Shown: positions 23,287 through 48,932 of the stretch, one piece after another | Layout: each line of letters opens with the position of its first letter | How positions within the stretch are numbered: position 1 is the stretch's first letter | Notes under the pieces: generated by a model | What the model saw: the letters and a program-made list of their open reading frames with translations, nothing else | The model's database searches: none | Told to the model about the DNA's origin: nothing | Assembly (NCBI GenBank): GCA_050084985.1 | Contig: JBITNC010000001.1 | Coordinates: 139,252,001 to 139,316,000, forward strand | Length of the DNA: 64,000 nucleotides | Source of the DNA: Nageia nagi | Lineage: Eukaryota > Plantae > Pinophyta | Direction: 5' to 3' | Program-made: the position numbers and the translations under genes

Positions 23287-23980
23287 GGAAGAGCCTACCC
23301 TTTGGCCAAATTTGCATATATATTATGGTATATATCAAAAATAACATTGGACATATATCAGCTCCACCACCACCACCTTCATCTAATTACACTGCTTCAC
23401 TTCTGATATATTATGGGCATATATCAAAGTTTGCCACTTGTATGCCTTCTGATGGCATCATTATGCCCAAATATATCATGGGAGTATAGTGAAGCTACAT
23501 AATGGGTGTATATCGAAAGCCACATGAAAACATCCACTGGTCCAATGAGATATATGATGGGCATATATCGAACCTATATCATGGACGTATAGCAAGAAAT
23601 TAAAAAAATTTGGATTTTGTTGAACAGATATATCATGGGCATATATCAAATATATCATGGACATATAGCAAGAAACATGAAACACCTCAAAATATTGAAA
23701 CTAGACATATGATGGGCATATATCACTTAACATAATGTGGGCGTATAGAGTCAATTAAGAATGAAATTTTTTAAAATTTTTGAATGAGATATATTATAGG
23801 AGTATAGTGGTTATATGAGGGGCGTATATTAAGAACTAAGAATGGAAATTTTTTATATTTTTGAATGAGATATACTATGGGTGTATAATGAGTCTATAAT
23901 TATATTTTTGGTTATATTATGGGTGTATAGTAGACATATCATGGGTGTATATTGTATACATTATGGGTGTATAGCATAAA
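23287..23980 (+). repeat. Left MULE TIR with arrays of ATGGG(C/T)(A/G)TATA motif
   Basis: Many copies of atatatcatgggcatata and variants. The region is inverted relative to 48060-48932. Confidence 0.9.
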
Positions 23981-25669
23981 AAAATTTAAAACTCACCAAC
24001 CTATTCTACGTATCTAGTCATATTGTTTGATTTTTTGCATGTAAATTGAAATGATCAGTCCACCGTAGTTGTAAAACCCCAAAAATCCATGTATGGACTT
24101 TTTTGCCAATGCATGTTTATCAAATGAGGTCTAGGCTTGTGTTTCTCTTCCAATTTATGCTTGCATATTGATTTGTGGGTTGCATTTATGTAATTATTTC
24201 TACATGAATAAATTTTCATCTTATTGTAGTCTTAGCAATGAAATATTCATACCCATTGAAATTTTCATATCATATTTGCATGAATAATGACAATAATGCA
24301 AGCTAGAAAAACCCTTAGAAGAATGCAGCACCAAAACCATATAGGAAAATAAAATTATATCTACTAATGAAGACGCGAATGTAGTATGGCATGGCATACA
24401 AATAAGATTTTAATAAAAAACCCTACATTCTTAAGGTTTTAATTGGAGTAATTGCAAAGCATGAACAATGTTAGTTCATATCAAGCATTGGTTGATGTAG
24501 AACATGTGTGTATATGCTAAATAATGCAATTAATACAAATGGGGTTGACTAATGCACTATCACTCTACTTTGTAAATATTGATGCATATATCAAAAATAT
24601 GGCAATAACATGTAACAAGAATGCAATATTGTTTACTTAGATTCTATATTCATTTTATTAATCAAAAAATGCACAAAGGATAGAGGATACATTCATAAAC
24701 AAGTACATCATTGGTGCCCTAGAATTGGCATGCCACTAGTGCCATAGGATGAGTGAAATTACAAACATGAACAAGAATGTAGTGATGAGTGAATAATCAA
24801 ATGATGAATATACATGCAAATTTATAGAATAATAGATGCACAATATAAATAGACAAAGCAAGTTGTAATCCTTCAAATGATCTTCAATTAATAATCCTTA
24901 TATGAGATTGAAATCATTATTTGTCCATGATTTATAGGTCGTCAAATGATGTCTTTATATATAATACAAGTTTACATGACTTTGATATTTTGACCCCTTG
25001 TACATTCCACAAGGGTCAAATACATGGCCTACACCTCTTCTATACATTTTTAATCTCTTTTTAAATAATACATTATTAAGGGATTAAAATGATTTATTAA
25101 ATACATAAAGTTTCATTTTGAGGCATATACATTTGCCCCTCTTTGGATGTGTTATTGAAGCAATGAAATTACATGTCCTTAGAAGAAGTGTATAGAAGAA
25201 ATTGTTTTGATCCTTTTGCTGATGATGATGATGAGGGTCCCTTGCTACCCCTTTTTGACTTGGATGCCCTAGGAAAGGTCCCTAAATGGTGCAACCAAGG
25301 AAAAATATGATGAAGAATATCTCTTCAGGAATGATGCTATGTAGATGATGGAAATGATTATGCTATTAGGTAGTTATATGGTCCCATATCCAATTTTGGA
25401 GATGGAAGATGTATTTTTTCCCCTTGTACTACTTCAACCATGAATCTGGCCATTATGTCATTTTTGATACCTAGGAACCATTTGCACTTACATCCATTCC
25501 TTGAAATAGAGAGGATTTGCTTTAAATGAGATGAAATAATGATGAAATGAACATCATTGGTGGCATAGGGAATAGTGTGTACATCGCTGATGGTGTGGAA
25601 TTCTATTATTTTTCTTTTACTCTTCAGGATGTAGATACTTGCAATCAATTTTTAGAAAAAAATAGGGTG

Positions 25670-26220
25670 TATGCATAGTGAGTTACATTGCCCATTGATA
25701 ATGATTCAATGTCAACAATGTACTTATGGTTGCATTGCTGATTTATCTTTTAAGTGAGTGAACTCTCACTAACAATGTTGTTGGCCATCGATGATCATAC
25801 ACTTTATGTATATGATCTAAAGACATTATGCTTTGTATTGAATCAAAGCAAAAATCATGCGAATACATAGTAAGTTGGATTATTCATTGAAGATGATCCA
25901 ATGTTAACATCTTGCTCATGGCTACATCACCAGTTTACTTTTAAGTGAGTGAACTCTCACTAGCTGTGTCATTGGCCATTGATGATCATACATTTGTATG
26001 TCTATGATCTAAAGATAGTATGCTTTATATGGGTTCAAAGCAAAAACCATGTAGATACATACCAAGTTGTATCATCCATTGGAGATGATCAAATGTCAAT
26101 ATCTAGCTCATAGCTGCATCATTGGTTTACTTTTAAGCAAGTGAACTCTGACTAGCTGTGTCATTAGCCATTGGTGATCATACATTTTATGTATATAATG
26201 TAAAGGTATTATGTTATCCT
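25670..26220. repeat. Three tandem ~190-bp units in the retroelement 3' internal region
   Basis: cttttaag..agtgaactct.acta.c.....ttggccat.gatgatcatac occurs at ~25747, ~25938 and ~26130. Confidence 0.8.
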
Positions 26221-29200
26221 TGTGAAAGATGAGTGATCAATGCCAATCATACCCACCTAGATAATACCTATAATACAAAAAAACATAAACCTGTATAGAT
26301 CACATCCATGAAAGAACAAGCAATGTAAATAGTAAGGATAAACTATAATATTTAGATGTTTGTACTATGGTCAATGCCAACCATAGTAATATAAAGTATG
26401 ATACATAAACTACTGTGATAGATAAGTCATAGCCTATGGATGATGTTTAGATGACTCACACTAGTGATGTCCTACAATCAATGCAATATTTGCTCGTGGG
26501 GGACCATGGCTTTGGAATAATTATCAGTATACCAATAAATCATCAATGTACCATATATTCAATTAATCATTAGCCTTTCATTTCAATATATTAATTTGTA
26601 TGAATTTTCAATATAAATCCACATCGTTGGTGGTGTGGTATGCCTATAATTTTATGATCATATTTCCAACAATTTTGATCCTTATCAATAAAATATTGCA
26701 TATGCATGAAAGAATCATAGAAATGAGTAGACATTGAATGAAATTTCAATATGCCCTATTTACAAAATTATTTGTAGGAACTACACATCGCTAGTGGAAT
26801 GAGATTTTCCATATCAAGTATAAAATTTTGAAATATAATAATCCATATCACTCTTTATTGCTTCTAAATGAAATAATATTACCAATTGCCATAAAATTTT
26901 CAAGATAAAGCATGAACTAGCAATATGTGATCATATATTCAATTTGTCTATACAATGATGATATCATTCAAGAGGAAGAATCCATTCAATTTGCATTGAA
27001 AATAGTTCAATTTAGATATTCAATACAATGCAATATTTTATAGATAATACCATAATTCTATAATATACCATATTTTAAAGGATACAATGGCCTTAAATTT
27101 AATTAGTAGAACAAGCATTTTGTTTGAAATAGAAATCATAAGAATAACATATACAATGTTTACTTTTCATACTACATAGTCAAAGAAAATTAGTGTTCTT
27201 AATTCATTAATGACAATTTTGCAATGAAGAGCATAAAACATGTGAGATAAGATACCTTACCTTTACTTACCTTTATGCCCCATGGATGGGAAATTTTTTC
27301 ACTTTACAATTTTGAATTTTGAATTTTGGCCTTCTAATTTTCAATATTTGATTTCCATCATGCCCTAGCTGAAATTGAAATTGTCCATAGCTGAAGTTAT
27401 ATCCTCTTTTTCTTAATTTCTTATGTGTATTTTTATTTTTGTTGTTATTATTGTTATTTTTGTTATGAAATGTGACTCATATGGGGTGTAATGACTAGAC
27501 CCATGATATGCAACCTACATGAAATGCACCTTATATGATATGCATCCTATATGATATGCAAAATTTAGAAACCATAGTACATTAGGGGGTGGTGGAACCC
27601 CCATTAGTTTAGCACATTTTGCTAAGAAAAATGGATTTTCTTTGCTTATATTATCCTTTGTATTGTGTATACCTTGGGCTACTACTCTCTTAAGAAGATC
27701 AATAAATTTGATTCATAACTCTAGAGGTAATGTATTATGTTGTTGCAAATGACTATTAAGGAGTAAAATCTTGAATAGATACTTATCAAAAGGACAATCT
27801 TTTTGTTTTCTATATTCTTGTAACCTAATCTCAACTAGATCTAACCGAACTAAATTTTTTCTTGTGTTTGCTTGACTAGCTAGATGTTTAGAATAAGAAC
27901 CATTATTTTCATTACTATTTTCACATCGTTAGTGTCCTACATGTAGTATGGCATGTCGTTGGTGATGTGCTTCCTCATCACAATTATCTTGAAATTTCAT
28001 AATTTTGTTTTCAATCCCTAAATTTGAATAATTTTGAGGGAGTTGATATTTACCTTTTGCAATCATGTCTAAAATTATAAGTTTCAAATCATGAAAAGAA
28101 TCTATAGCATGATCCTTCCATTGATGATAAGTGCAATAAACATCCTCATTTCCCATTGGAGTATCACTATCTTATGTTCTTCTTTTTAATAGCATCAATA
28201 AACCTATTTTCATTAGATCCCTCATAATTAGCATTGGTTGATGTCCACTAAGTATCTCAAAGTTGGGGACCTCTTGATTGGGTGGTGGGGAACAATTGTG
28301 GCTATCCTATTTGGATTGTTCTACGATATGAGCATCTTGTATTTTCAAAGTTTCTTGAGATGTTATTCTTTGCCAACTTTGTTTTAGTTTTGGTTGAATT
28401 TGGGGTTTAAGTTATGGTTTTTGTTGAGGTGTTATTTGAGCTTTTGGTTGAGGTGTTATTTGAGCTTTTGGTTGAGAAGATATTTTATTTTGTTGCTTTT
28501 GCATAATTTCCTTCTCAAATTTTTACATACAATATTACCTAGCATATGGATGTTCTAACAATTTATCTAATTCTTTTCTTATAAATGCATGATATTTTTC
28601 TTTCAATTCAAGATCATTATAAATTCCAAACATCCAAGAGGAATTGACTAACATATGTGCTTTAATTTTATGAAATTGATCTTGAAGTGTAAATTTTTTA
28701 AATGCAATATCATTCATTTCAAACTTATCCATAGTGTCCAAATTTAAATATGCATCACAATCAAATTCAGCCATATAATCATCAAAAATAATATTATCAT
28801 GCACTTGATTTTCTATAATACTTGGCATATCATCATTCATGGAAGTCAAGCATGAATTTGATAAACTTAATTCATTAAAATATTTTCTATTATGCATAAC
28901 ATACATTTATTTTTTAGAAAGTGGTGCAAATAAATCACTTATAACATTCAAACATTCAAACAAACCATTTTTAAATGCCTTATCCATGAGAGAATGCAAG
29001 AAGATGGAAAAACATTTTTTATATGAAAACCTCTAGAAATCTTGATAGAAATGCATGCAAAGGGCTAAACTTAATCTCAAAAGTTCCTACTATGATGACC
29101 TATGGGTTTGGCAAGTTTTAAGCATAAAATAAATCACCAAATAGTTGGAAAATGCCTTCAAAATGTATGATTTTCAAGGTAACATTTTCTACAAAAATAT

Positions 29201-29519
29201 TTTCAAAAATCACTCGAAATATACAAATCAAGACCTAGAAAAATTAGAAAAACTTCCCAATTATATGTATATATAGTTTGGAAAATTTTTTCTAATGCTA
29301 GATCTCACCAAATTGAAGAAAATGACCTTCAAAAACTAGGGTTTTCTAGAGAGACATTTTTCAAGAAAATAATTTTATTTGAAGCAATAAAAGTTTCCAA
29401 ATTAGAGAAAAGTTAATTTAACAAAAAAGGAAAATAAAACCAAGAGTTTATAATGCAATAATCCTCATAAAAAGTGATTCCCTAAAATGAAAAATTCTAG
29501 GGTTTATAAGAACAATTGA

Positions 29520-29528
29520 GGTTCACCA
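29520..29528 (-). promoter_or_regulatory. Primer-binding site complementary to the 3' end of plant cytosolic tRNA-Trp
   Basis: Plus-strand ggttcacca matches the recalled tRNA-Trp 3' end (...GGGUUCACCA). It is 3 nt from the LTR. Confidence 0.65.
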
Positions 29529-30319
29529 AAGTGTAAATGGTAAATAATGCAATTAATACAAATGGGGTTGATTAATGCACTATCACTCTACTTTGTAAAT
29601 ATTGACACATGTAATGTAATATAAATGCAATATTGTTTACTTAGATTCTATATTCATTCCATTAATAATAAAATGCACAAAGGATAGTGCATACATTCAT
29701 GAACAAGTATGCCACTAGCACTTTAGAATTGGCACGCCATTGATGCCGTAGGATGAGAAAAATTACAAATGTAAATGAGAATGTAGCGATGAGAAAATTA
29801 GAAAATAATCAAATGATGAACATACATGCAAACTTATAGAATAATAGATGCGCAATATAGATAGACAAAGCAAGTTACAATCCTTCAAATGATCTTCAAT
29901 TGATAATCCTTGTATTAGCTTAAAATGATTATTTTCTCATGATTCACTCATGATATATAGGTCATCAAATGATATATTTACATATGATATAAGTTTACAT
30001 GACTTTGATATTTTGACCCCTTATACATTCCAGAAGTGTCAAATACATGACCTACACCTCTTTTATGCATTTTAATCCCTTTTTAAATAATACATTGTTA
30101 AGGGATTAAAATGATTTATTAAATACATAAAGGTTCATTTTGAGACATCTACAATTTGAGAATAAAATAAAAATAGATAAATAATAATAAAATTAATTAT
30201 AATTACAAGCTTGTTAGTATGATTTTGAGGTGACTTGATAGATGCCATGCATTAGTTGAAACCAAAATTACACCAATTAGCATATGCTTAGGGAAGGAGT
30301 GAACACATACTCAAATGAT

Positions 30320-31680
30320 TATGTGAGGAATTTAAGATCTATAAATAACCCATAGTTTAGTCTGATAGCTTTAGAAATGGGTAGAGACTTGGTAAGAAGG
30401 GATCCCAGTTCAACAGAGGAGAGTAGAAAAAATATAAAAGTATAACATCTTCTTTGTGAGGGAGTTTTAGATAGCTTTATGAATGCATGTAGTGGTGAGG
30501 ATGAACAAATCTCACTATAAGTTGCAAAATCATGGAATGAAGATATTTTTAGTGTCAATGGTTTAGAGCTGGTATTCTCAACAAAGATAATTGCCCAAGC
30601 TACCCACCTACAAAATATTAGAATAGAAGTAATAAGGAAAGGCAAGGTGAATAAGCTTGCAACCATAGATAAGTTTTTCCAAACCTACGTGAAAGGGATT
30701 AGTTTGGATAAGTTTCAAATGGGGTATTACAAAATTGCATTCTAGAGCCTTGGAAGGAGATATCCAAGGCCTTGATGAGATATATAATACTTGAAGGAAG
30801 GTACAAAAAGCTCTATTCCCATAATTTTAGTCTTATCAACCACTTTGATTTTCCTAAAATAGATAGGGTGAATTTTACCTTCTTTATTTTTAATTCAATG
30901 AGCGATTCTATAAGAAAATTTAAGGTAAATTTAACACAAAGGCCAATTCATGGTGGAGTGATAAAACTTATGTATGAAATGGCCTTGAAAAATAGACCTA
31001 GGATGGTGCCAAGTGTAAGAATCTTAATTGGACACTAGGTATTCAACACAAGGGAGAATAAGAAACTTGGGGTTAAAATTTCTAACAAAGAGAACACCTT
31101 TGTAGCTAGTGTATTGAAATCAAAGAAGGGGGAATAAAGCTAATGAAGAGAAAGGAGAATCAAGAAAGGAGCATGCTGCAAGGGAGATAAGGTCTAGGAA
31201 AGGTAAAGCAAAAATTACATTTGGGTCTAATAACATTCATGGGGAGGAGATTGCATCATCACAGGGTAAAGAAATGGAGGACATGTCGAAGATAACAAAA
31301 TAAGATACAATTGTAACTAAGACCCTTATGCAAGCTAATAAGGTAGCTCTCAGCAATATGGTCACAACAAATATAGACCCCTTTTTCATTTACATAGCTA
31401 AAATTGGTAGATATGTTATAGAAATAACACATGAAATTACAATAAAGTAGGGGAAGGGGAAAAAAATAAGAATGGAGGATGTAGTGGAGTACAATCCAAT
31501 CTCAAAGAGAATAAGGAGCAACACCAAATGAAGGAGCAAGGAGGAAAAAGGAAAGGATAAAGGATCATTTAAAGGTGTGCAATATATTATTTTAGAGGAA
31601 TGAACACCTCCAACAAAATTCCAAATCAGAGGCATTCTAAAGATTTTTGGGGAAGTAGAAAAATAGGAGTGAAGCTGAAA
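30320..31680 (+). pseudogene. Degenerate ORF of a TE-associated family of unknown function inside the MULE
   Basis: Near-continuous reading 'LVRRDPSS..EGVLDSFMNACSGEDEQISL*VAKSWNEDIFSVNGLELVFSTKIIAQAT..EPWKEISKALMRYIILEGRYKKLYSHNFSLINHF..NFTFFIFNSM..PIHGGVIKLMYE', followed by a charged low-complexity tail. It resembles the extra ORFs that accompany plant Tat/Athila-type elements (recall only). Confidence 0.5.
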
Positions 31681-32149
31681 AGTAGGAGTGTTTTTGTGTT
31701 TTTTGTATGTTTTTTGGGCACTTAGTGTATTATTATTAGTTAGTGTATTGTTAGTATTTGTTGGGGCACTCAATATTTTTGGGAACCCTATTAAGGAATT
31801 CTATACACTTTTCTGTATGTTTTTTGGGAACTCCTATGTTTATATTTATTTGAGGTGTAAAGTTTTGTGCATACCCTTCCAAACTTCACATATTTTGAAG
31901 ATTAATACAAAAATAGCATCTAAATTGTATGTAAATAATGTGTTTTTGGTTATTCTTTACTAATATTTTTATTGCATTGCATCAAATTGTGTTTGCCTCA
32001 TGCATCTTGTTAAAACACTCGAGTGCTTTAAGATTATAATTCACATTTTAAATCTAATGGAAGTTTGAAAGCAATGAATGCCTTATACTAAGCTATAATG
32101 CACCTTATATGTTTAATTTTATGTATTTAACTGACACATAATTACATTG

Positions 32150-34330
32150 AAATAGCATAGAATTTTTAATCTACCTACCCAAGATATTAAAGAAAAATAG
32201 CTATTTTGTCAAAATAATTTAACTCGGACAAGAATACCATGCATAAAAGGAAAGATAGATTCTATTACCACAATACCTTTATTCAGGTTAATTAATTTCA
32301 AAAAGGGTGAAGAATCTAATCCTGATGCACAATGCATGTTTTTATGTGAGAAAAAGGAAAAAATGTCTAAAAGGCAATTACAAATCAAAGGCCATCATAA
32401 GTTAAATGTAAGAAAATATTATTTTTCCAATTTCAGTGTTGCATGATCTTATCTTTGCAAGTAATATTATTCTAAATTTGTTATTTTTTATGTAGTTATT
32501 GGTGTGCTTATGGCTATAAAAGCACAAGAGATATGACCCACCTCCTCTAAAATGTAAGAAAAATCTTACAAAGAAAAGGGGTTGTCAATGTCATTTTATT
32601 GTTAAGGTATTTGAAAGTTTAATTGATGTTGAATTTATTACATACAATAAATTTGAACATGTTGCACTTGATGGACAACCCTACCATGGAGCCATGATAC
32701 AAGTGAAATAAAAAATGGAGGGGCCAATTTCACTCCACATATGTCAAAAGAGACTAGTTCTTTGATTGAATCATTGCTAATAGATGGTATTATAGTTGAT
32801 ACAACATGTAATTTCCAATTTATGTAAGAGTACTTTGAAAATGTACCTACAATTCGAGATCACTACATTTTAAGTAGGGATGTTCAAAACATATACAATA
32901 GATTGATGATGGGGAAGGTGTAGAAGGCTAAAGATGAAGCCATTAGTATGAACCAATGGTATCGAGCCAACAAGGAAAGGTTTTTTATATATAAGAACCC
33001 TAACCATGAAATTGGAAAATTTGTTATTAGTATTCATACAAAATGGATGTTGGATAAGATGGTGGAATTATCCTGCAACAACATAATTTCAATAGATTCA
33101 ACCTTCAGTACAAATTTGTACAGTGTAAGTATTGCTGACTTTTTGTATAGTTATTATTTTTGCATTGTTGATGTTGTTCATATATTATTTTTTGTGTATT
33201 GCTAATTTTTTTGTATTACTAAACTTTGATACATTATAGTACCAATTTTACACATTGCTTGCATTTGATTCACAACAAAGTTGTCTACCTATGGATTGGG
33301 TTATCACATACAAAATGGTGTTGATGACATAGCTAAATGGCTTGAAATATTGAAATAATGTTGTCTAAAATGCCAACCAAGTTGGCATGTGAATGTTTTT
33401 CTTACTAATGATGTTGTTGTAGAAATCTAGGCCATCAGGTTTGTGAACTGTATTTTGTTTCAAAAAATATGCAAAACAAGTGTATTGTTTCAAAATATAT
33501 AGTTTTTTTCTCTTGTTCATTTGGTAAATTTATTTATGTTATTGTATGCATGTCCAAAAAAGTGTTTAGTTAGAGGCATTTATTATGTGTCTGGCATGTG
33601 AAACTAGCTTGGTTAAACAATTTCTACAACAAGGCATCAAGTAAAGAGATTGGAAGAAAAATATTTGCAAGGCTAGATGAAATAGTGTCCAAATGAATGG
33701 ATGATACATCTATGAAATTAGTTGTATTTAAGTTTTACATTGATTTCCATAACGAGAAGGATTTAATAGATTACTTGATTGGTAATTGGTTTGATGTTGA
33801 TAGGATTCGTAAGTACAATCATAACAAATCGAATATTTTTGGTTATTATTTTTCCCCTTTTCAAGCATTTGTGAGTTTTATTCTACATTTTATATTGTAG
33901 GTATGTGGGCAAAATGCTATTAAAAAAATTTCCATTCCAACCAAGATATAAATTCAGCCATAAAGGTAACACATGCAAGCATGTATACAAAATCATGAAC
34001 ATGTCAGTTGAAACTATTAATTTTCCTAACTATACAATGAAACCTACCCCTAATACACCTCATTATCCTACCAACATATCCTCACCTCACGGTAACATCT
34101 CTCAAGGTTAGGAACATTAGGTTGATCATTCATCTCCCAAGATATTAGATGTAGATGATGGAAAGGTATTATTAAAATTATTGTTAGAGCAATCTTATGA
34201 TAATCCTAGAAGTAAGAGGTAGTTTGCAAGTTTGGTTATGGATATGCAAGCTAGGTACTACCAATTTTGATTCCCATAATATTTTGATGTAGCTGAAAGG
34301 TTAAAAAGAAGAATAAAGTGTTAGATGAAT
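32150..34330 (+). pseudogene. Spliced MULE (MuDRA-like) DDE transposase with SWIM finger, degenerate
   Basis: 'KRGCQCHFIVK' WRKY/GCM1-like DNA-binding motif at ~32575. First catalytic Asp in 'IISIDSTFSTN' (GAT 33095-97). 'NVFLTNDV' at ~33395. CxxH 'LLCVWHVKLAW' at 33586-97. 'NQDINSAI[K]' is the E-motif position at ~33950. SWIM 'GNTCKHV' at 33965-33985. GT..AG introns at ~32408-32495, ~33125-33239 and ~33809-33900. Confidence 0.88.
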
Positions 34331-34839
34331 CCTTCAAGTAAAAACAAAAGTGGGACTTGAGAGATGAAATCATGTGACTTAATTATTGATGCCCAACAAA
34401 CTCTTACTTATGTCTTTCCAAGATTAAAAAAGTTTGGTCAACCTAAGATAACACAATTTCAAGGTAAACACTTTATGATTTAATTTAACTTCATTCATAG
34501 AAATTATTTTTCAAAAAATCTAATTTGAATGCTACTTTTACTCTTTCTCATAGATTATCATGCCAAATTTGAATCAAAATATAGTCCTTTGTCATTCTCG
34601 ACCATAGCTGAATAATCTAATGTAGGGGAAAATCATAATTAGAATATTGGGCATAGGAGTCAAGATAAATGTTAAACTTTACAATAAATACATTAATGTT
34701 TTCTATACTTTTGACAATTGGGATTGCATATTATTTGTAAAACAATGGTGAAGGCATACCTTAGCTACCAACTAAGTTGTTTATATCCTCTTTATGGATA
34801 TGAGATATTATATCTTTGAAAGTAAGAAATAGTAGTGAT

Positions 34840-35030: not shown

Positions 35031-35034
35031 AATG

Positions 35035-36789: not shown

Positions 36790-37400
36790 TTTTTCATTCT
36801 TCCATACTTCTGTATGTTCATCAAACTTCATAACATATCCTTCTTTATAGTTCTCTTCCAATCTATGACCAAGAGTATAAAAGATGTAACATGTATGTTT
36901 CTCAACCTTAAAAAATAAAAAATGATCATCCCATGCACCAATGTAAATTCTAGGAGTTTCTAAAATGGAATTCAACATTTTTTCAATATTTTTATCCTTT
37001 AGTATTTTGAACTTTGACATCAAACCCTTTGGCTTAAGTAAGCCCATGTTAGAATACATAAAGTTAGTAGTCATGGAATATAAATTATCCTCAATAATGT
37101 AATCCAAATAAAAATGCCCATCTAGATAGTTATATATTTTAAGGATGGAATCTATTTTAGCCTGTTCCATTCTTCACATCCATCTTGTATCAGTGCATTG
37201 AGTTGTTTTTGACTAGGAAAAACACTAGGGTGTGCATGTTACCAACCTATGAGTAGTACACAATAAACTAAATAAGCAACCAACCCTCCACCAACTTGCT
37301 GGTATATCAAAGAAAAATAAATTTTAGATTTTAAAATAAGTTTCTCATTCAACTTCTCTAAACAAAAATCCTACCATGTGGCCATAACATCGTCACTACA
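36790..37400 (-). pseudogene. Domain homologous to the C-terminal region of the plant NT-C2 family (AT3G11760/AT5G04860-like); putative papain-fold protease/deubiquitinase
   Basis: Translation across two stops and a frameshift: 'SDDVMATW*DFCLEKLNEKLILKSKIYFSLIYQQVGGGLVAYLVYCVLLIGW*HAHPSVFPSQKQLNALIQDGCEEWNRLK../NYLDGHFYLDYII..IYIGAWDDHFLFFKVEKHTCYIFYTLGHRLEENYKEGYVMKFDEHT'. This is colinear with the recalled family consensus 'FFASIDQR..AGESACTALVAVIADW..MP..SQFDSLIREGS.EW..FPDKHFDLETV..VYIVSWNDHFFVLKVE..AYYIIDTLGERLYEGC.QAYILKFD'. Confidence 0.75.
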
Positions 37401-37959
37401 TTGACCATGTTCTTCCTCTGCATGTAATTCCTCATTGTCCTATTTTTATGCATGAAAAATCATATTAGGATGCCCTTAAACTCAAATAAACCTATTGACT
37501 AAAATATGTATAATATTCTATTCATGTAGCAATTCAAGGCTATGTATAGGCTACCCTAATGAGCACATAATTAAGAATCAATAGCCTATAGTTCTATGGG
37601 AATCAAGTTTTTTGGTACATGGGGAAAGTATGATTTTTGACATGGATTTGAAGCACATGTGGAAGTATTATTTAAATTTGGTGACATCATGAATAATGCA
37701 ACATAATATTCCATGGTTTCAGTCCAACCTTGTTTAGGTTCAGTGTATGGGTTTTTCAAAAGAAGGCCCTAAATACTTGTAGGCAACCTTGTCAACATTC
37801 TTCAGGCATGTGCTAACAAATATAGGGGTTGTAGGAAAAGCTATGGAATTCATCAAAGAGTACTTTGATTGTAGGATATGCACATGGGTTTTCAAAAAAG
37901 GACCTATAGTATTGTATATGTATGCAAAAAATATGTACAAACATGAAAAATATTCCCTA

Positions 37960-38440
37960 CAAATAGCATAAAGAATACATGCACTATGTCATTTTTGGCA
38001 TCCTATGTTGCCTATGTAATGGCCTGGGTCCACTTTGCATTATCTATGACATGCTTTTTTGGTAACCCTACCTCTTCATGACCTTCTCCTTCATTTATAT
38101 CCTAATTCTTGTCCATTCCTTTATTTGCATCCTCATTTTGCTCCATTCCTTTATGCATGTTATCGTGTATCATAAAGAAAATTATGTATTAATGAACATT
38201 AATTTTGAAATTTTTTCTTCAAATTTGATTAAATTGTGCTATCTATGGAATGAAGAATACCTATTGTGTGCCATTCATGGCATCTTATGTGGAATGTGTA
38301 ACGTTTTGGGTCCACGTTGTAGCATCTTCAATAGGTTATTCTTGGAATCCTGGCTCTTCATGACCTTCTCCTTCATTTACATCCTCCTTCTACTTCATTA
38401 CTTTATGCATGTTATCCTATATCATAAATAAAATTATGAA
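37960..38440. repeat. ~282-bp tandem duplication (small acidic exon plus intron)
   Basis: ctcttcatgaccttctccttcattta.atcct occurs at ~38072 and ~38354. Both copies are followed by ctttatgcatgttatc...tatcataaa.aaaattatg. Confidence 0.8.
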
Positions 38441-38549
38441 ATGAAAACTTAATTAAAAAATATACTTGTTATGAAATGAACAGTAAACATTTGATATAAA
38501 ATTAGGAATGATTATACATGTTGGGGTTATAATAAGAGGTTGGCAATCA

Positions 38550-39225
38550 AGTTACGGTGATTTAGTTTCCAATAACATAAAGCCACGAATTCCAAAGTAG
38601 TAGCATCCACATTGGATATGGGTAGCATGTAATCACTAAAATTACATGATATCACCTCTATCAAAATATGCCCCTATCCGATAGTGCTACCATGGCATGT
38701 TTCAGTAGGATCATCATTGTGCACATTGCCAGACCCCACTATATTCCCAAGAGGGTCAAGGAGATGCACCTTTTGACTCTTTCTAATAGAAAATAATCCA
38801 TAATTTATGCATTATTGTGGTTGTGGACTAGCATTTTCTTGCATGGGACATGAAGTCAACAATTAATTAAAAAATATAATTATTATGAAATACAAATATC
38901 ATTAATTACATAAATGTTTGATATAAATTTAGGAATGATTATATCTATTAGGTTATAATAGATTGTTGGCACTGAGGTTGCACCAAGTTAATATCCCATA
39001 ACACAAAGCCCCAAAGAGATTATCCCAATGTCGTAGCATCCCTCTTGGGTATGGGTAGCTTGTAACCTATGAAATTAATTGTTGTCACCTCTACTAAAAT
39101 ATGTCCTTCACAAATAGTGCTACCATGGCATGTGCCTACAGGATCATCATTATGCATATTTCTAGACCCCACTATATTACTAAGAGGTTTGAGGAGATGC
39201 ACCTTTTGATCCTTTTTGGTAGCAA
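38550..39225 (-). pseudogene. Two tandem Tnp1/En-Spm-like (Transposase_23/DUF8039-type) domains from a ~430-bp exon+intron duplication
   Basis: Copy 1: 'QKVHLLKPLSNIVGSRNMHNDDPVGTCHGSTICEGHILVEVTTINFIGYKLPIPKRDATTLG'. Copy 2: 'QKVHLLDPLGNIVGSGNVHNDDPTETCHGSTIG*G/HILIEVISCNFSDYMLPISNVDATTLE'. Both fit the V.L...IV..G....DP....HG..+G.....V.V......LP.P....TLG pattern. Confidence 0.65.
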
Positions 39226-39590
39226 ATGGATGAATATTGCCATGTCCTACCTTCTTGTCAAATAATGATGATTTGTAGGCCTTCAACTGAATACAAAAAT
39301 ATAGAATTTAGTTAAAATTAAATTAGAAGAAAATGGAGTTACCTAAACATTCACCTCATGATCAAAATTAACCTCATCATGTACATTTAACTCATCATCA
39401 AAATTCACCTCATCATCAACACCTTGATCATTTTTTGTAGATTAAAAATCAATTACACATGAAGAATTTTCATAATTTGATGAATCCTTTTAATAATTTT
39501 TGTGATGTCAACAATGAACAATATTGTATATTTGTACAAATATATAATAGCATATTTTTTTGATTTTTTTTAAAATTCTTATTGAAATGT

Positions 39591-42500
39591 TGATCCATAA
39601 TCCTTAAGAATTAAAATTTCAGTGGATTCACCTTCATTTTTCTTATTTTGTTATTCTTGGAAGTATTGAAATTGGAGTGACATATTTTGGAACATTGAAG
39701 TGAGATCAACAAGTTGCTTTTCTAAGTTAGAACCCCCTTCATTAGTCATGGTACTCTCTCTTTTCTTCCTTAGCAAAATACTTGAACCAATCTCATGATC
39801 TCCTTCTACAATTTCCTCTCCTCCTTTTTTACTTTGCAACATGGTATTCATGCAAAACAATTTCCAAACACCTAACAACAAAACTCACAAAATATAGGTT
39901 AATCCTAATTTAATCTCTTGCTCTAATACCTATCATGATCCATAATCCTTAAGAATTAAAATTTCACTTTAGCTCTCAACTTGGACTAGTCCGCACTTAA
40001 ATTTATTCAAGTGTTTGTAAGGAAAATTAGAGAGAATATTTGCAAAACCAAAGAAGAAATAGAACTCCAAGCACACAAAAGATAAGCAAAATTTACCTTG
40101 GTTCACCTAGTGTGGACTACTCCAACAATCTTAGCTCTCTTTTCAAAAAATGAGTTGAATTCAAATACAAAAAGGACCTCCATAATCTTCTAGCCTCTTC
40201 TCACATTCACACATAATATTTAGCTCTCAAATTCATCTCCACAATTGAACTAATCTCTCTAAAAAAATCCTCGTTTATAATAAATCCAAATTGTCCCTTT
40301 TTTATACAAAATTTGGGCTCAATTTTGGAGTATTTTACAACTAGGAAGAATTAGAAAAAAAATAATTCTAAGTACCCGTTTGGCTCCTCTATCTTCAGTT
40401 CAAATTTGGGCTCAAATGGTTGAGCCATATCTAAATAGGAGCCTCTAAAGATAAAAAATAATGCTCTTTGGTTTTATAGGTTTAAAAATAATAATAAACC
40501 CAATAATAGGATTTTAAACCAATTAAAAATAACATCACATCTTTAAAACATCCAAATACATACAAAAAATCACTTTAATAGGCAAATCCAATAATATGGT
40601 GCCACTTGGTAGCTTGCAATCTAGCCTCCAAAATGCCCCCATGCAATTTGGTCTCCAAACACCCCCATTTCATTAAAAACATTGCATACTTCAAAATGCA
40701 ATTTCTTATGGTGCCACTTGGTAGCTTGTAATTTGGCCTCTAAAATGCCCCCATGCAATTTGGTCTCCAAACACCCTCCATTTCATTAAAAACATTGGAC
40801 ACTTCAATTTTGGAGTATTTTACAACTAAGAAGAAAAATAAAAACACTATTTCTAGGTACCCATTTGGCTCCTCTATCTTCAATTCAAATTTGGTCTCAA
40901 ATGGTTGAGCCAATCTCTAAATAGGAGCCTTTGAAGACAAAAAATAACACTCTCTAGTTGTACAGGTTTAAAAATAATACTTAGCCCAATAATAGGATTT
41001 TAAACCAATTAAAAATAACATCACAACTTTAAAAAATCCAAATACATACAAAAAATCACTTTAATAGGCGGATACAATAATATGGTGCCACTTGGTAGCT
41101 TGCAATTTGGCCTTTAAAATGCCCCCATGCAATTTGGCCTCCAAACACCCCCCATTTCATTAAAAACATTGCATACTTCAAAATGCAATAACTTTTAATC
41201 ATGAAGTCAATTTCATGAACCATAAAAAGTGCTAGAAAGAGAAAAATGAGATCTACAACATGATGTAATAAAACAAATATGAATAGGACTTGAAAAATTA
41301 CTTTTTCCTTTTTTTGTGCCTCTTATAGTTTTTAATAAAAAAATACCCAAAATTAGAATCACATATCTCCCTCAAACTAAATCGGATTTTTGATTCAAAA
41401 GAAGTTTTGAAAAGCTAATGAAGAATAGAACATACTAAACATACTAAAAATGAAATTTATAAATATTAAAGAGATCCAAATTTTGGATCATTACTACCCA
41501 TTGAGAGAGATCTTTTGACCCCAAAAGTACTTAGGATGGTGGAATAAGGTGAGGGTAGAGTTCCCTCACTCGATCAACTGCATGCCACTTGGCCTTGTGT
41601 GGGTGTTGACCCTTTATATAATATGCCATACCTCATGTTCACCACTACAATATGACCTCTTCTTCTTTTCCAACATAGCATCCTTAGCTAAAACACTTAT
41701 GTATTTAGGGGCTGAATCCTCCATAGATGGAAACATGACATCTATATCTTTTGCAACTAAGGTTGGTTCATAAAATTTCAAATTATCCATATTAACAACA
41801 TAATAAATCTACATATAAGGTGGCAAGTCTAACCAAAATTCATTTTCACCAACTTGATCAATGATATTAAAAGGCCCATACCTTATTGGCTTCAACTTTT
41901 TCCCCTTACCATGTTGTCTTTCCTTGCTAAGATGAAGCCATACTTGATCCTCAACCTAAAATTTATGATCCACTCTATGATGATTACTCCTCTCCTTGTA
42001 GTTTTCTTGACTCTTCTCCAACTATTCTTTTACCTTCTTATGTATCACCTTGATCCTCTCAATGAAGTTCTTTGCTTGCTCCTCCTCACTATGAAGAACA
42101 CTATTTCCATTGCTAGATTAAACTAAAGCCAAATCAAAAGGTGACTATAGAAAATAACCAAAACATGTATCAAAAGGTGATTTGTAAGTAGAAGTGTATA
42201 GCTTGATTATATGCATGTTGTATATAGCTAAAATGTTCATCCCAAGTATTAGGATGCTTACCATAATAACCTCGTAAAAGGTATACCACTATCCTATTTA
42301 CTACTTTTATTTGACCATCTATATGTGGATGAAATGTTGTACTCCTCTTTAACTTAGTGTCCATCCTTTCCCACAAAGAAGTCCAAAATCTACTAAGAAA
42401 CTTGGAATCCCTATCAAAAATGATATAAGTAGGAAGATCAAAATGTACCCACACATAAGTAAAGAAAAGATTAGCAGCCTCTTGACCTGTCAATCTTTTT

Positions 42501-45500
42501 ACATGGAATTAGTTTGCACATTTTACTGAATCTATCCACAACCATATACAAATAATCATTTCCTATCTTAGAAATAGGTAAACCACTAACAAAATCCATA
42601 TAAATACTCTCCCATGATCTTGTAGGAAAAGACAATGGTATATAGAGACCCAACTTCTTATTTCTAGGTTTGCTAACACTAGATAACATACAACCTCTAA
42701 TATACTTGAATACATTTTCTTGCATTTTAGGAAAATAACAATACCTTCACAAATTAGCAAGAAATTTATCAATACCAAATGAAAAACTAATCCATCATGT
42801 ATTTGAAAATCAATATTTCCATTTTTCTTTGGATTTATAATAATAAGAGAACCACATGGTGATGTGTGTAGTCTAATGACTCCTTAATCTAGCAATTCCT
42901 TAATTAGTTTCTTAATTTTTTCATTTTCCATAAAAGAATATATATAAAAACCAATATTAGGAATTGTGACATTAAGATGTAAGTGAATCTCATGTTGTAT
43001 ATCTCTTTTAGGTGGAATCTCTTTAGGTATTTGAAATAAAACCTCAAATTCATAAATTACCTCTTTAACTTCATCTTTGTATTGTGGTTCACATTCATCA
43101 AGTGCCTTAATGATTTCCACTTCATTTGAGAAATCAACATTGCAAGTGCAAACATTTTTCCTATATTAATATGTCTCTTTGATTTTCCTATAGTAATTAG
43201 AGAAATATTCTTTTCCTTATTTTGATGAGAACTAACGATATATTCAATTCTATCCTTAATGAGTCTATATTTATTTTCCTTTCTATAAAACAAAACATGC
43301 AAGCATAATCCCATAAATATTCAAAGGTACAACATCAAGTCAAATCTCATCAATGTTATTCCTGTTAATTCCAAATGTCAATTTGCATTGTCTAGTTACC
43401 TCTAACTTGGACTTTTTATGAACCCATCCTAATGGATAGGGGAGTTGATGTGGTTGAGTAGTGAGTGTAAGTGATCTGACATATTCCTTAGAAATTAAGT
43501 TAACTTATGAACCAAGATTGAACAATGTATCAATCCTTGTTTTCTTAGCTTGTACCTTAATGTGAAAAAGATCAATTTTCTTCGTTTCTTCATCTTTAAT
43601 AGATGAATTATGCAAGACATACATGCCATTTTCTCATCTACATCAGAACCATTGTCTACTTCTTTTTCAATAGTATTTGATTGTTTTTTTTGCTCTTTAA
43701 ATTTAGGGTATAATTTAGGATGCAATTTCTAACATTTAGCCTCTAAATGACCTTGTTGTTTACAATGAGTACATACATCTTTAGACTTTTCTTTTTGTGT
43801 AGTAGATGTGGTTTTCACTTTTCCCTTATTCTTTCCAAAATTATTAGGATTAGAAGCATTTTTCTTTTTATTTTCTTTAATAAATTTTCCTCTTTCTTCT
43901 AAATGTGTGGCTTGTACACAAACTTTATCCAAATTAGTTGGATCAAACATCAACAAAGTATATTATAAATAGTTTTTTAAACCACCAATATACTTTAGAA
44001 GAGTATCTTGGGAATTAAGAGAAATACGTAACATAGTAGCCCTTTTTTTGAAACTTGGTTATGTATTCTTGCGCACTTTACCCTTTACCTTGATGGAATC
44101 TTTTCCATTCCATTACTTCTTTTTGATGGTATCCCAATGGATAAAATTGATCTCTAATCAATTGTACAAAATGAGTCCAAGAGGCAATACAATCATTAAG
44201 TGTTTCACTCTCACTTTTCATACAATTTTGCATACAACTTTCCCCCCAAATAAATGCATTCCCACTCATCTTAATGGTAGCTAATTGGATTTTATCCTCA
44301 TGTTTTACAATCTTTTGTATTCTACAATACACTTCAATTTGCTTAATCCAATGATATAATTTTTCAACATTCACTTCTCCATCAAAAGTAGGAAAATCAA
44401 AATTTACTTCAAGCTTCAAAGGAGAACTTTCAAAATAACTATTTGCATTTTCATCACCTAATCTTTTACCTTCACTAGATTCACCTTCATTTTTCTTATT
44501 TTGTTATTCTTGGAAGTATTGAAATTAGAGTGACATATTTTGGAACATTGAAGTGAGATCAGCAATTTGCTTTTCCAAGTTGGAACCTCCTTCATTAGGC
44601 ATGGTACTCTCTCTTTTCTTCCTTAGCCAAATCCTTGAACCAATCTCATGATCTCCTTATACAATTTCCTCTCCTCCTTTTTTACTTTGCAACATGGTAT
44701 TCATGCAAAATAATTTCCAAACTCCCAACAACAAAACTCATAAAATATAGGTTAATCCTAATTTAATCTCTTGCTCTGATACCTATCATGATCCATAATC
44801 CTTAAGAATTAAAATTTCACTTTAGCTCTCAACTTGGACCAGTCCACACTTAAATTTATTCAAGTGCTTGTAAGGAAAATTAGAGAGAATATTTGCAAAA
44901 CCAAAGAAGAAATAGAACTCCAAGGACACAAAAGATAAGCAAAATTTACCTTGGTTCACCCAGTGTGGGCTACTCCAATAATCTTAGCTCTCTCTTTAAA
45001 GTGAGTGGAATTCAAGTACAAAAAGGACCTCCATAATCCTCTAGCCTCTTCTCACATTCACACATAATATTTAGCTCTAAAATTCACCTCCAAAATTGAA
45101 CTAAACTCTCCAAAAAAATCCTCCTTTTCAACACATCCAAATTGTCCCTTTTTTATACAAAATTTGGGCTCAATTTTGGAGTATTTTACAACTAGGAAGA
45201 ATTAGAAAAACACTAATTCTAGGTACCCATTTGGCTCCTCTATCTTTAGTTCAAATTTGGGCTTAAATGGTTGAGCCAATCTCCAAATAGGAGCCTTTGA
45301 AGATAAAAAATAACACTCTTTGGCTATACATGTTTAAAAATAATACTCAACCTAATAATAGGACTTTAAACCAATTAAAAATAACATCATAGCCTTTAAA
45401 AATCCAAATACATGCAAAAAATCACTTTAATAGGTGGATCCAATAATATGGTGCCACTTGGTAGCATGCAATTTGGCCTTCAAAATGACCCCTTGCAATC

Positions 45501-45919
45501 TGGCCTCCAAAATGCCCCCATGCAATCTAGCCTCCAAAATGCCCCCATGCAATCTGGTCTCCCAATGCCCCCCATTCCATTAAAAAAATTGCATACTTCA
45601 AAATGCAATAACTTTTGATCACGAAGTTGATTTCATGAACCGTAAAATATGCTAGAAAGAGAAAAATGATCTCTAAAACATGATGTAATAAAATAAATAT
45701 GAATAGGAACTTGAAAAATTACTTTGTTTTTTCTTTTCTTCTTTGTGCCTCTTGTATTTTTAATAAAAAAATACCCAAATTTAGAAATCACATATCTCCC
45801 TCAAATTGAATCATATTTTTGATCTGAAAGAAGTTTTAGAAATTTGATGATTAATAGAACACACTAAATATACTAAATATGACATTTCTAAATATTCAAG
45901 AGATCCAAATTTTAGATCA
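39591..45919 (-). mobile_element. Ty3/gypsy LTR retrotransposon lacking RT/RNase H, with a tandem (three-LTR) remnant
   Basis: Perfect TSD AATGT (39586-90 / 45920-24). 5' LTR 44789-45919, second LTR 39936-41490, and a 31-bp LTR end at 39591-39621. PBS gctctgatacc at 44773-44783. Gag ORF 44078-44419, CCHC 'CTHCKQQGHLEAKC', protease remnant 'IDTLFNLGS*VNLIS', and integrase ORFs 42471-42725 and 42170-42493 ('SWESIYMDFVSGLP', 'IIFDRDSKFLSRFW'). Confidence 0.92.
40320..41190. repeat. Internal duplications that lengthen one LTR (1555 bp versus 1131 bp)
   Basis: caattttggagtattttacaacta restarts at ~40320 and ~40805. tatggtgccacttggtagcttg occurs at ~40595, ~40707 and ~41081. Confidence 0.85.
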
Positions 45920-48059
45920 AATGTTGTTTTATTACCTTCTATTGTACGATAAATTTCACATACCCCTTTCTAAATTCATGTTTATAACCAATCAATTTTC
46001 TCTTTTTCTTTATATCCTCAAAATTATACTCTTCCTATTTATTTGCATTTTAGCAACAACTAGTTCTGGTAATATTTTTCTATCTTTAACATCATAATGA
46101 AAATAAAGATTACCTAATAATCTATAATGCTTACTATTAAATTGTCTCATCATCACCTTATTTATATCCTACCTATATGCTATATATTTGTTTTGGTTAT
46201 AGGATGATGGTTTTTTAATGCCATAGGATGGCCTCCTACCTCTTGGAAGAGGAGGAATTGGTGGTGCACCTTCATGATATCATCTCCTATGTTGGTATAA
46301 CCTTTTCCTATCATCCTTTTGAACACCATTGATCAAACCACAATTCCTAATAAGGAAAAAATATTAAATTCTATCACCCTTCCTAGTGGCTATCCATTCT
46401 CCCACAACAAAATCTACAAATACATCTCTATAATCAGGTACCCCATGCAAGCTCCTAAACTCCTCCTGATAAATTTGTACCATGTGTTCTTGAAAAAAAT
46501 AAATAGAAGATCAATATGTACTTGTACTACCCACTCAAAAAAATAAAAATCAAGTGTGTATTATTTAGCACATACCATTGATTAGCATGGAAATTTCCAC
46601 AACACACTTCTAAATTATGAGTGCAACTTCCTTGCAATTAAAAAAAAAAAGAAACATCTTCAAAGTATGAACTTGCAATAGGGTTTATCAATACATCAAA
46701 GACTAAGTAAAAAGTATTTTTTTGTCACATGTTGTGGTTTACAGTACTACCTAGTAGACATGATTCAAACATAGTTTCATGGAATGCATTGATTTAAGGA
46801 TATTCAATTCAAGGATACATACATCAAGGATGCCCTTAAACTATTTCATCTGATGAAGCACTTGAGTAAGCTATCAAATTTATTGCCAAGATGAAATGTA
46901 GGTTTGTCCTAGGTACTTTTACATTACATAAGAATGTAGGAATTGGGGTATTTCTGGAAGCATTCTTTAATTTGGTGGAGACTAAATGTGCTCCATCTTA
47001 TGTTGTTATTTCAATTTTTTTATGCAAAAGTGGGAAACTATGATGATGATGAATGAGTATGGACATTGATGAAAGATTGAGGAATTAAAAAATACATGGA
47101 TGTAGTTGGATAGAAGTTAAATTAAGGGTAAGTGGAGTAAGATTAAGGAATCAAAAAGACAACTAGATGTAGTTGGATTTAAGCTCCTAAGATTGTAAAT
47201 GGAGTAAGGAAATTAATGAGAGATTGAGGAATCAGAAAGAAACTTGGTTTTAGTCGGATTGAACTTAACTATAGAAGAATAACATTATTAATTTTGCTTT
47301 CCCAAAATTTTCAATATAATGCCTAAAAGTGGAAAATTTGTAATAGGGTGTATAAATACATCAAATATTGATTAAAATAGTATTTCCTTTGCATATATTT
47401 TTTATTCTTGTAAGAAAGATAGTTCTAACTAGAAAAAACACCCTAATTATGAATTTGTATAGTTATCGAACCCTAAATCATAAACCCTTTACATTATTGA
47501 ATAATTCCCCATATTAGAAAATTTAAAATAGGATTTCTTATTAAATCAATGGTTTTAACTAGAAAAAAAATCCTAACTATGAATCTATATAGTTATCAAA
47601 CCTTAAACCCTACACATTATCGAACAATACCAAAAATTGGGAAATTTGAAATAGGGTTTATTTTTAAATCAATTTATCTTTACAAGTGTATTTCTTTCAC
47701 TATGTATAGAATCGATGAGAAAAAAACCTAACCAAACAAATTTAACAGGAATGCATACTAGGATAATCATCATGCCCCTTTTGGTAGAAAGCTCTATGCA
47801 ATGGTATCATACAGAATGCTCTACAATTTCATAGGATCTGGTTAGGGTTTTTAGCTAATGAATTAAAAAAAAATGATAAATTCATTTGAAGAAGAAATAA
47901 ATTAGACAAGGATATGATCATATGAGTACCAATATGAGGGCTTGTCTTGGAAGCATCGTATAGGATGGTCTACAAATATTTTAGGGTGAGATCATCTTCT
48001 TTTGTTTTGAATTATAGAGAAAATAAGAGTGGTGGATATATGCTCAAAAGTTAAACTTT

Positions 48060-48932
48060 ATATTTATAGATCTTGTTATACACCCATGATAGGTGCACTA
48101 TACACCTATTCTATAACTAAAATTATTGCTATATGCCCATAATATAAGTTCTATACACTCATTATATATCTCATTTAAAAATTTAAAGTTTTTTAGTTCT
48201 CACTATACACCCATATTATAACTGCTATACGCTTGTACTATATCTACATTCAAAAATTTAAAAATTTTCTATTCTTAGTTATCTCTATATGCCCCTCTTA
48301 TAACTACTATATGCCCATAGTATATCTCATTAAAAAATGTAAAAAATTTCCATTCTTAGTTCTCATGATATGTCCCTTGTACAACTGCTATATGCCCATA
48401 ATATATCTCATTCAAAAATTAAAAAAATTCATTCTTAATTATCTCTATACGCCCACATTATGTTAAGCAATATATGCCCATCATATATCTAGTTTTAACA
48501 TTTTGAGGTATTTCATGTTTCTTGCTATATGCCCATGATATATTTGATATATGCTCATGATATATCTATTCAACAAAATCTAATTTTTTTCAATTTCTCA
48601 CTATAAATCCATGATATAGGTCCGATATATGCCTATCATATATCTTGTCACACCAATGGATTTTTTTCAGCAGCTGTTGATATATGCCCATTATATAGCT
48701 TCACTATATGCCTATGATATATCTAGATGGATCAACATCGTAGGAAGGTAATAGAGTGGTAGAATTTGATATAAATCCATCATATTAGTTTTGATATATA
48801 CCCATAATATATCAGAAATGAAGTGATGCAATCGAGCAGAGGTGGTGGTGGTGGAACTGATATACACCCATTGTTATTTTTGATATACATTCATAATATA
48901 TGTGCAAATTTGGTTAGAGGATAGGCTCTTCC
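48060..48932 (-). repeat. Right MULE TIR with motif arrays and ~4 tandem ~80-bp units
   Basis: Reverse complement of the left TIR. The unit ctatatgcccata.tatatctcatt.aaaaa.tt.aaaa..tt..attcttagtt is repeated over 48130-48450. Confidence 0.9.

Follow-up and report, generated by a model that had tools for sequence, protein, structure and literature searches.

What kind of protease is encoded by the second gene of a large plant transposon, and what could it do for the element that carries it? We address this question for a 64,000-bp stretch of Nageia nagi DNA (contig JBITNC010000001.1, positions 139,252,001 to 139,316,000), referred to here as the window, in which a transposon at 23287-48932 contains a transposase-like gene on the + strand and a long convergent gene, gene 2, on the − strand. 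The original prediction, made from the sequence alone, described a two-gene Mutator-like element (MULE) whose second gene joins DNA-binding-like, Tnp1-like and non-Ulp1 protease-like domains, and proposed an undescribed counter-defence system that might remove ubiquitin. As far as homology can tell, the protease is indeed ubiquitin-directed in kind: it groups with the DUC deubiquitinases (DUBs). The element is a protease-carrying transposon, as are the KAONASHI/Ulp1 MULEs and the Helitrons with VTD proteases, with a different enzyme family, DUC. The copy in the window is a dead member of a multi-copy plant transposon, likely of the Mutator type, bounded by terminal inverted repeats (TIRs).

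DUC proteins, plant proteins that combine a C2 and a DUB domain, were reported in December 2025 to be K63-selective and unreactive towards SUMO probes, with Cys318, His441, Phe442 and Asp456 as key residues of AtDUC1 (bioRxiv 10.64898/2025.12.04.692294). The DUC-type catalytic domain of the transposon lies in one predicted exon (36592-37439, − strand), assigned by homologue search, alignment and residue spacing. With 36090-37200 as query, read through its stops, phmmer retrieved 105 proteins at E≤1e-3, with E-values down to 1e-12 for full-length matches; the best full-length match is from Cryptomeria japonica. The transposon domain aligns across the whole DUC catalytic domain at 21-31% (about 30%) identity. 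By residue spacing, the host family of these relatives is DUC, because the AtDUC1 pattern is kept in the 84 host matches that have both motifs: Arg290 (Cys-28) in 78, Arg308 in 72, Glu315 in 70, Phe442 (His+1) in all 84, Asp456 (His+15) in 83 and Glu464 (His+23) in 81, with the Asp373/Glu375 spacing one residue off; these counts use AtDUC1 positions taken from the preprint rather than a direct alignment of AtDUC sequences.

A model of one host domain built from 86 sequences (pLDDT 83.8) points to the same fold group. Its Foldseek matches were DUBs of the VTD and herpes M48 families, with 4 chains at E≤1e-3, and VIA-align matched the model to VTD 8add (Z 16.2, rmsd 3.3, 179 aligned), M48 2j7q (Z 16.1), 8adb (Z 12.6) and AvrPphB (Z 10.3). 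This pattern of structural neighbours agrees with that reported for the AtDUC1 crystal structure (bioRxiv 10.64898/2025.12.04.692294). A protein-atlas search linked the DUC piece to herpes tegument DUB clusters at 0.89, which we treat as a lead only; PDB sequence searches with the element sequences were empty, and Pfam gave nothing meaningful in the MULE genes. An Ulp1/C48 identity was rejected, as the original prediction had anticipated: none of the top 40 relatives carries C48 (19 carry NT-C2), the Cys precedes the His, and the fold matches VTD/YopT.

No C2 domain was detected alongside the catalytic domain. The NT-C2-bearing protein P0007, used in tblastn against the window and against L001, an independent copy of the element described below, matches in its catalytic part only, and Pfam NT-C2 is absent from the six frames of the window, where decay could conceal a remnant. 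In the accessible text all embryophyte DUC members are said to bear a C2 domain (bioRxiv 10.64898/2025.12.04.692294); if our assignment is right, the transposon domain is a natural C2-less DUC with a changed K63 determinant, and contradicts that statement. Among the host relatives, P0004 (Cryptomeria japonica XP_057856916), annotated as a 949-aa protein with a coiled coil, a WRC domain, an intact DUC domain and no C2, may be another C2-less DUC, possibly nuclear; it falls outside the transposon rows in the tree. P0033 combines NT-C2, DUC and a methyl-CpG-binding domain.

The active site of the window copy is decayed. Tyr codons stand at the Cys site (37274-37272) and at the Asp site (36879-36877), and the His (36924-36922) is kept with Phe next to it; L001 and the related copy P0003 keep His-Phe and the Asp. 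In contigs aligned to 37195-37350, each of four sequencing runs shows the Cys allele, with 20 of 47 of the depth at the codon in X1, 9 of 12 in X3, 145 of 286 in X4 and 319 of 625 in X5 (5, 2, 18 and 29 contigs, respectively). Of the six loose-end consensuses listed across this codon, five carry Cys, which by row amounts to 28 of 37 contigs. Tyr is an easy decay product, because C>T changes in the context of the Cys codon run at 0.20 between copies. Judged from these alleles, Cys is likely the ancestral state, and the ancestral enzyme was likely active, since other copies keep Cys, His-Phe and Asp. The stop at 37240 is gone in nearly all of the depth of the same runs, and the host Asp-Gln motif is restored at 37304. 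The stops and frameshifts of the window copy are open in other copies, and one stop common to the window and L001 is open in P0003.

The four transposon rows of a 78-row tree group as a single clade (SH-aLRT 100), whose stem has about 5 changes per column, and they keep the active site. The tree comes from a quick search with near-duplicates and the 39-aa P0105 left out; it does not settle the DUC donor, and its stem length may be inflated by composition. The argument that it was maintained is an indirect one: the whole domain is open across copies, and its active site is intact after that long stem. A host origin is most likely, in other words an old capture, and we are confident, short of certainty, that in the ancestor the domain worked as a DUB and was maintained. 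Two determinants of K63 selectivity have changed: the equivalent of Arg290 is Leu in the window and in the loose-end consensuses, and that of Arg308 is Gln or Leu in the transposon copies. Acidic residues are kept at the distal-ubiquitin site, as is the Phe gatekeeper. A DUB with weakened K63 selectivity is predicted from these residues.

The domain belongs to a multi-copy family. L001 came from a metagenome scan with one gene 2 exon, which yielded two loci from 543 pattern matches; the second, L002, was dropped as unrelated (49% GC, no match to the element). L001 is 10,864 bp long with 30% GC and is 74-86% (about 80%) identical to the window element in six colinear blocks: the inner left TIR, the empty site of the first nested insert, the open reading frame (ORF) at 30154-31651, the transposase, the internal motif array and gene 2 at 35450-37015. 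Beyond 37015 it is rearranged, and its first 106 bases match 37793-37900 in inverted orientation. Contigs from the DNA runs X1, X4 and X5 (3,499, 14,605 and 16,718, mostly less than 95% alike) fill all 30 bins of 30100-39700, and X3 likewise carries the DUC exon, so that diverged copies occur in four organisms from three studies. With the transposase and the convergent gene in L001 and contigs in X1, X4 and X5, gene 2 is a trait of the family, as the original prediction had supposed, and not an accident of one copy. The presumed RNA run X8 gave 9 matching contigs, all less than 95% alike, which we do not take as evidence of expression. The viral and prokaryote contigs searched contained no relatives.

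Gene 2 runs from 46630 to 35613 on the − strand in nine candidate exons. Its splice sites were picked by eye, and the model describes possible splicing of predicted exons. Of the eight predicted junctions, six are compatible in phase, among them the two that flank the DUC exon, one of which uses an AG kept only in L001. The long spliced gene of the original prediction is present as a convergent gene, and its single fusion product is a prediction. Upstream, the 5' exons (46630-46576 and 46488-45925) share an in-frame junction and have no Pfam match; a fold computed from this one decayed sequence, whose last ~40 residues are probably out of frame, is uninformative (pLDDT 35.7). This N-terminus may consist of tandem helical repeats, for which two tool tests gave nothing; the DNA-binding-like label of the original prediction found no tool match either. 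The 3' part of an exon split by a Ty3 insertion (39344-39590) is followed by a tandemly duplicated unit of ~80 aa (38548-39286; copies 59% identical) that is multicopy in the DNA runs. This unit may resemble Tnp1 (PF03017)/DUF8039, a likeness for which six tool tests gave nothing; the Tnp1-like label drew no match in Pfam, PDB-sequence and protein-atlas searches, nor in a word-based protein search (a weak negative). Two short duplicated acidic exons (38416-38261 and 38164-37979; direct repeat 73%, phase 0-0 junctions) precede the DUC exon. After it, the last two exons (36508-36140 and 35987-35613) have phase-compatible GT-AG junctions in the window and in L001 and encode a region of ~250 aa that is conserved between copies (relatives P0002, 71%, and P0006, 58%); Pfam has no match in 35613-36508. 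A word-based protein search returned nothing for the DUC ORF alone and one host DUC for the transposon-type alignment, both weak negatives.

The carrier has the anatomy of the MULE superfamily, with long TIRs and a target-site duplication (TSD) within the 9-11 bp range. The left TIR (23287-23899, + strand, with a subterminal extension to 23973) and the right TIR (48298-48932, − strand, with an extension from 48077) are ~620 bp long, in keeping with the length above 600 bp first claimed, and in a self-comparison of 23287-23899 with 48932-48298 they are identical in 509 of 642 columns (79%). The 10-bp TSD first described is real in length and position and imperfect in sequence (23277-23286 against 48933-48942, 9 of 10 bases matching). 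The element inserted into the 3' long terminal repeat (LTR) of a Ty3 retrotransposon, whose 5' LTR keeps the empty site with a single TSD copy; this host element has Pfam matches to reverse transcriptase, RNase H, gag and SH3 in 17700-23300. Excision of two nested insertions, 24509-30158 and 39591-45924, leaves a MULE of 13,662 bp; both insertions have LTRs and 5-bp TSDs, and the original prediction had placed them correctly. Identity within repeat pairs follows the nesting, from 75% between the LTRs of the host element and 79% between the TIRs to 83% for the first insert and up to 92% for the second. The MULE is old and heavily deaminated, with CpG at 0.15 of expectation once the inserts are removed; CG and CHG have decayed equally (0.37 and 0.34), in keeping, as is the Cryptomeria japonica match, with a gymnosperm host. 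Its description as a decayed fossil is borne out by stops, frameshifts, Tyr at the Cys and Asp sites and a deletion in the transposase.

The ends of the element are dense in a 16-bp motif that the original prediction had not noted, with 42 matches against 2.4 expected, a number reached in none of 100 shuffles. All but one of the matches lie inside the element: 15 at the left end, 19 at the right end and 7 in an internal array (34848-35022, − strand) between the converging 3' ends of the genes. L001 has 20 copies, 6 of them at the same internal place. The internal array is oriented like the right TIR and has no TIR tip. Gene 2 was not found to be an insertion of its own, a possibility raised at the outset: no internal TIR tip and no convincing inverted pair (longest 37 nt, 73%) sets it apart, and the same junction is present in L001. 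Between the transposase and the array (34811-34960) the window is without ~900 bp that are seen in L001 (2414-3326) and in loose ends.

We hypothesize that the DUC domain was captured long ago, likely from a host gene, and was likely kept active, removing ubiquitin from proteins or chromatin of the element itself and thereby aiding mobility. With its C2 membrane anchor and proximal-ubiquitin arginines lost, the enzyme would not be bound to membranes, and its selectivity would be relaxed instead of limited to K63. In-frame splicing to the upstream transposon-type exons would tether the DUB to the element, either by direct contact with the motif arrays or by way of the transposase. The preferred substrate would be the element-bound transposase complex, which would escape removal driven by ubiquitin, in line with the proposal made for Helitron VTDs; histone ubiquitin is our second choice. 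A counter-defence role is plausible. The whole chain, a captured, active and tethered DUB that deubiquitinates the transposase complex or local chromatin, we hold with slightly more doubt than belief. A bolder version remains tentative and on balance doubtful: the Mutator family would have swapped the membrane anchor of DUC for a DNA-targeting module of transposon type, relaxed K63 selectivity and come to erase ubiquitin at its own motif arrays, on chromatin or on the transpososome. This would be a counter-silencing by true-ubiquitin removal, convergent with Ulp1-MULEs and Helitron VTDs and possibly assisted by a VANC-like third gene.

Several observations weigh against this proposal. L001 is without the Cys half of the DUC domain and without all upstream gene 2 exons, and the fusion of DUC to the Tnp1-like exons is seen in the window copy alone, because L001 is rearranged at 37015. 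Two gene 2 junctions have no resolved join, and two acceptors are mutated in the window copy. No annotated protein with the gene 2 fusion was found, the word-based searches being weak negatives. At the Cys codon roughly half of the depth reads Tyr, as does P0012, and perhaps a sublineage with Tyr spread too; no single molecule was seen to combine Cys, His and Asp. The domain also departs from the hosts at several conserved positions, among them the Thr394 region of the distal-ubiquitin site. In X1 the depth is flat (52-266 from 30421 onward), whereas X4 and X5 reach 1789-7270 over the transposase and fall to 128 and 77 at 34915-35235, with 134-1312 over 35236-37803 and 875-5107 over 37804-39700. 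Summed contig depth is not copy number, but the depth over the DUC region in these two runs is several-fold below that of the transposase, and many relatives may therefore lack the DUC half or have diverged in it. The motif arrays, moreover, need no accessory protein, because a MULE transposase alone can bind TIR motifs; that of AtMu1c is reported to do so and to demethylate and activate its copies.

Selection between copies, which the original prediction had looked to for support, was not detected. Between the window and L001, dN/dS (the ratio of nonsynonymous to synonymous change) is 0.63 (0.32-1.33) in the DUC domain; the C-terminal exons give 0.77 and the transposase gives 0.82. None of these is below the 0.69-0.87 of non-coding DNA read as codons. 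Changes in transposon copies are not rarer at host-conserved columns either (four of four pairs, p 0.52-0.80). Both results count against maintenance of the domain in the copies compared. They also fit two fossils that have decayed since insertion, and do not speak to an active lineage; the pair is uninformative on selection, because the transposase looks neutral too.

This neutrality bears on the first alternative, in which transduplication brought a DUC fragment into an autonomous MULE and the fragment multiplied along with the element without ever being functional for it. The element does pick up host pieces, as an adjoining decayed PPR fragment shows, and passive carriage would account for the missing purifying selection, for Tyr in about half of the copies by depth and for the lower depth over the domain in two runs. 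Drift, however, would hardly leave a complete open domain with Cys, His-Phe and Asp at the end of a very long stem, ~30% identical to every host DUC, in an exon flanked by phase-compatible splice sites in two copies; and a neutral dN/dS is seen for the transposase as well. We consider passive carriage unlikely.

An active but untethered DUB is a second alternative, and in our judgement an improbable one. Such an enzyme would act in trans on DNA-repair or trafficking chains, for instance K63 chains at excision breaks, while the transposase or the product of the third ORF would bind the arrays. Host DUCs are reported to be K63-selective and nuclear K63 chains to mark DNA damage, the AtMu1c precedent supplies an array-binding transposase, and our searches showed no DNA-binding domain in gene 2. 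The third ORF may resemble the PMD/DUF1985 fold class that includes VANC, although no tool supports this fold. A role on K63 chains sits poorly with Leu and Gln/Leu at the Arg290 and Arg308 equivalents. Quite unlikely, finally, is a pseudo-enzyme or composite, in which gene 2 came from another DNA transposon (CACTA TnpA-like) beyond an older right end at the internal array and DUC was kept mostly for ubiquitin binding: the orientation of that array, the drop in depth at 34915-35235, the common Tyr alleles and the reported inactive VTDs of insects and Ulp1 domains of CACTAs are offset by the missing TIR tip and inverted pair, by a junction shared with L001 and joined at 35029-35300 in one contig each of X4 and X5, and by the likely ancestral Cys.

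The proposed captured and tethered DUB can be compared with several known systems. With AtDUC1-3 and PpDUC the transposon domain shares full-length catalytic homology, the Cys-His-Asp order, the His+1 Phe gatekeeper, the His+15 Asp and, in at least one transposon copy, acidic residues at the Asp373/Glu375/Asp535/Glu464 positions; it differs in the undetected C2, the ~30% identity, the lost Arg290/Arg308 equivalents and the extra C-terminal exons. Like the KAONASHI or C48-MULEs (KIU VANDALs), in which the protease gene often lies opposite the transposase and some clades have TIRs, the element is a likely MULE with a separate gene that carries a captured ubiquitin-family cysteine protease. The protease here is DUC-type, with host members that act on ubiquitin and not on SUMO, rather than C48, and tools did not find DUF1985/VANC in gene 2. 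Ulp1 genes are reported on MULEs and CACTAs, their role being unexplained in the accounts available. The VTD and OTU proteases of Helitrons and Helentrons are likewise transposon-borne DUBs, the VTDs of the YopT/VTD/DUC fold group, and protection of transposition proteins has been proposed for them (PMC9741609). VTDs, which plants reportedly lack, have an Asp-x-His active site, whereas here the Asp lies 15 residues after the His and the carrier is a cut-and-paste element. In Spm (TnpA) and the VANDALs (VANC), too, accessory genes stand beside the transposase and dense clusters of short motifs occur at the ends, in the VANDALs in non-coding DNA, as do the three arrays with 41 copies here and the 20 copies in L001; the TnpA helix-turn-helix, Tnp1 and DUF1985 were found by no tool here. 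TnpA-like proteins are reported as apparently confined to flowering-plant Spm, and neither they nor VANC are described with a DUB in the portions of the literature available. Like Pack-MULEs, the element is bounded by TIRs and holds host fragments (the PPR piece and DUC), but it is of autonomous type and 13.7 kb long, and its DUC piece is whole, old and in-frame rather than a recent fragment of high identity.

What is new is the enzyme family; protease accessory genes are known on MULEs, CACTAs and Helitrons, and the element stands nearer to described systems than the original prediction suggested. A literature search short of most subscription papers and repeat databases found no DUC domain on a transposon, and the accessible text of the DUC preprint mentions transposons for VTDs only (bioRxiv 10.64898/2025.12.04.692294). 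If our reading is correct, a DNA transposon has once more, and independently, recruited a protease of the ubiquitin family, as other transposons did with Ulp1 (MULEs, CACTAs) and with OTU and VTD (Helitrons), and such repeated recruitment would argue for ubiquitin signalling as a general brake on transposition. With a crystal structure, probes and mapped specificity residues available for DUC, the role of a protease on transposons becomes directly testable.

The transposase gene of the element is likewise decayed. In the translations of the spliced gene at ~32156-34470 (+ strand) and of its L001 counterpart we recognise what we take to be the first and second Asp, the CxxH, the catalytic Glu and the SWIM motif of a Mutator-type transposase. 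Pfam has no match for MULE transposase or SWIM in the decayed window copy, because the domain is split over decayed exons; the + strand transposase-like gene of the original prediction is present, and its MULE/SWIM label draws on these putative motifs and the TIRs and TSD. The window copy has 17 stops in the 580 codons compared, and a ~330-bp deletion at 33964 removes its catalytic-Glu/SWIM stretch, which is present in L001 and in the loose ends of 6 and 28 contigs. L001 itself has a ~1-kb insertion with CACTA-type ends (3936-4950) inside the 3' part of its transposase gene.

Between the left TIR and the transposase lies a third, intronless ORF of ~500 codons (30377 to ~31650, + strand), shared with L001 (9472-7900, − strand; DNA 79%, protein 67-68% identical), in which it is ~330 bp longer at the 3' end. 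The element accordingly has more than the two genes first described. Between the two copies dN/dS of this ORF is 0.63 (0.46-0.90). It has no Pfam and no PDB match; it may be similar to the extra ORFs of Ty3/Tat elements (PMD/DUF1985-like), a likeness that the tools did not confirm. The PMD-class fold is reported to be shared with the DUF1985 of VANC, and the gene might accordingly be VANC-like. Also missed in the original prediction, the 5' region of gene 2 contains the decayed fragment of an E-class PPR host gene (46740-47300, + strand; E_motif E 2e-5, PPR_2 E 0.005, both below curated cut-offs), which contains a short internal duplication.

Neither nested insertion is part of the MULE. The first, an LTR element of 5.6 kb (24509-30153, with its TSD copy to 30158), has 625-bp LTRs that are 83% alike, a TSD matching at 4 of 5 bases and a 192-bp tandem unit; a six-frame Pfam search found no coding domain in it. 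It is absent from L001, which shows its empty site. The stretch 24982-25829 within it resembles 62502-63354. The second is a Ty3 retrotransposon (39591-45919, − strand, with its TSD copy to 45924) with Pfam matches to gag, integrase zinc finger and SH3, LTRs up to 92% alike and a TSD matching at 5 of 5 bases. A third copy-specific insertion at 30159-32018 was considered and rejected, because the stretch is also in L001.

Further repeats surround the nest. A 1.84-kb direct-repeat pair (78%) lies at 52805-58525, and a tandem array of ~135-bp units at 59106-60215. The direct-repeat pair 16001-16376 and 50520-50889 flanks the whole nest and suggests one more outer element.

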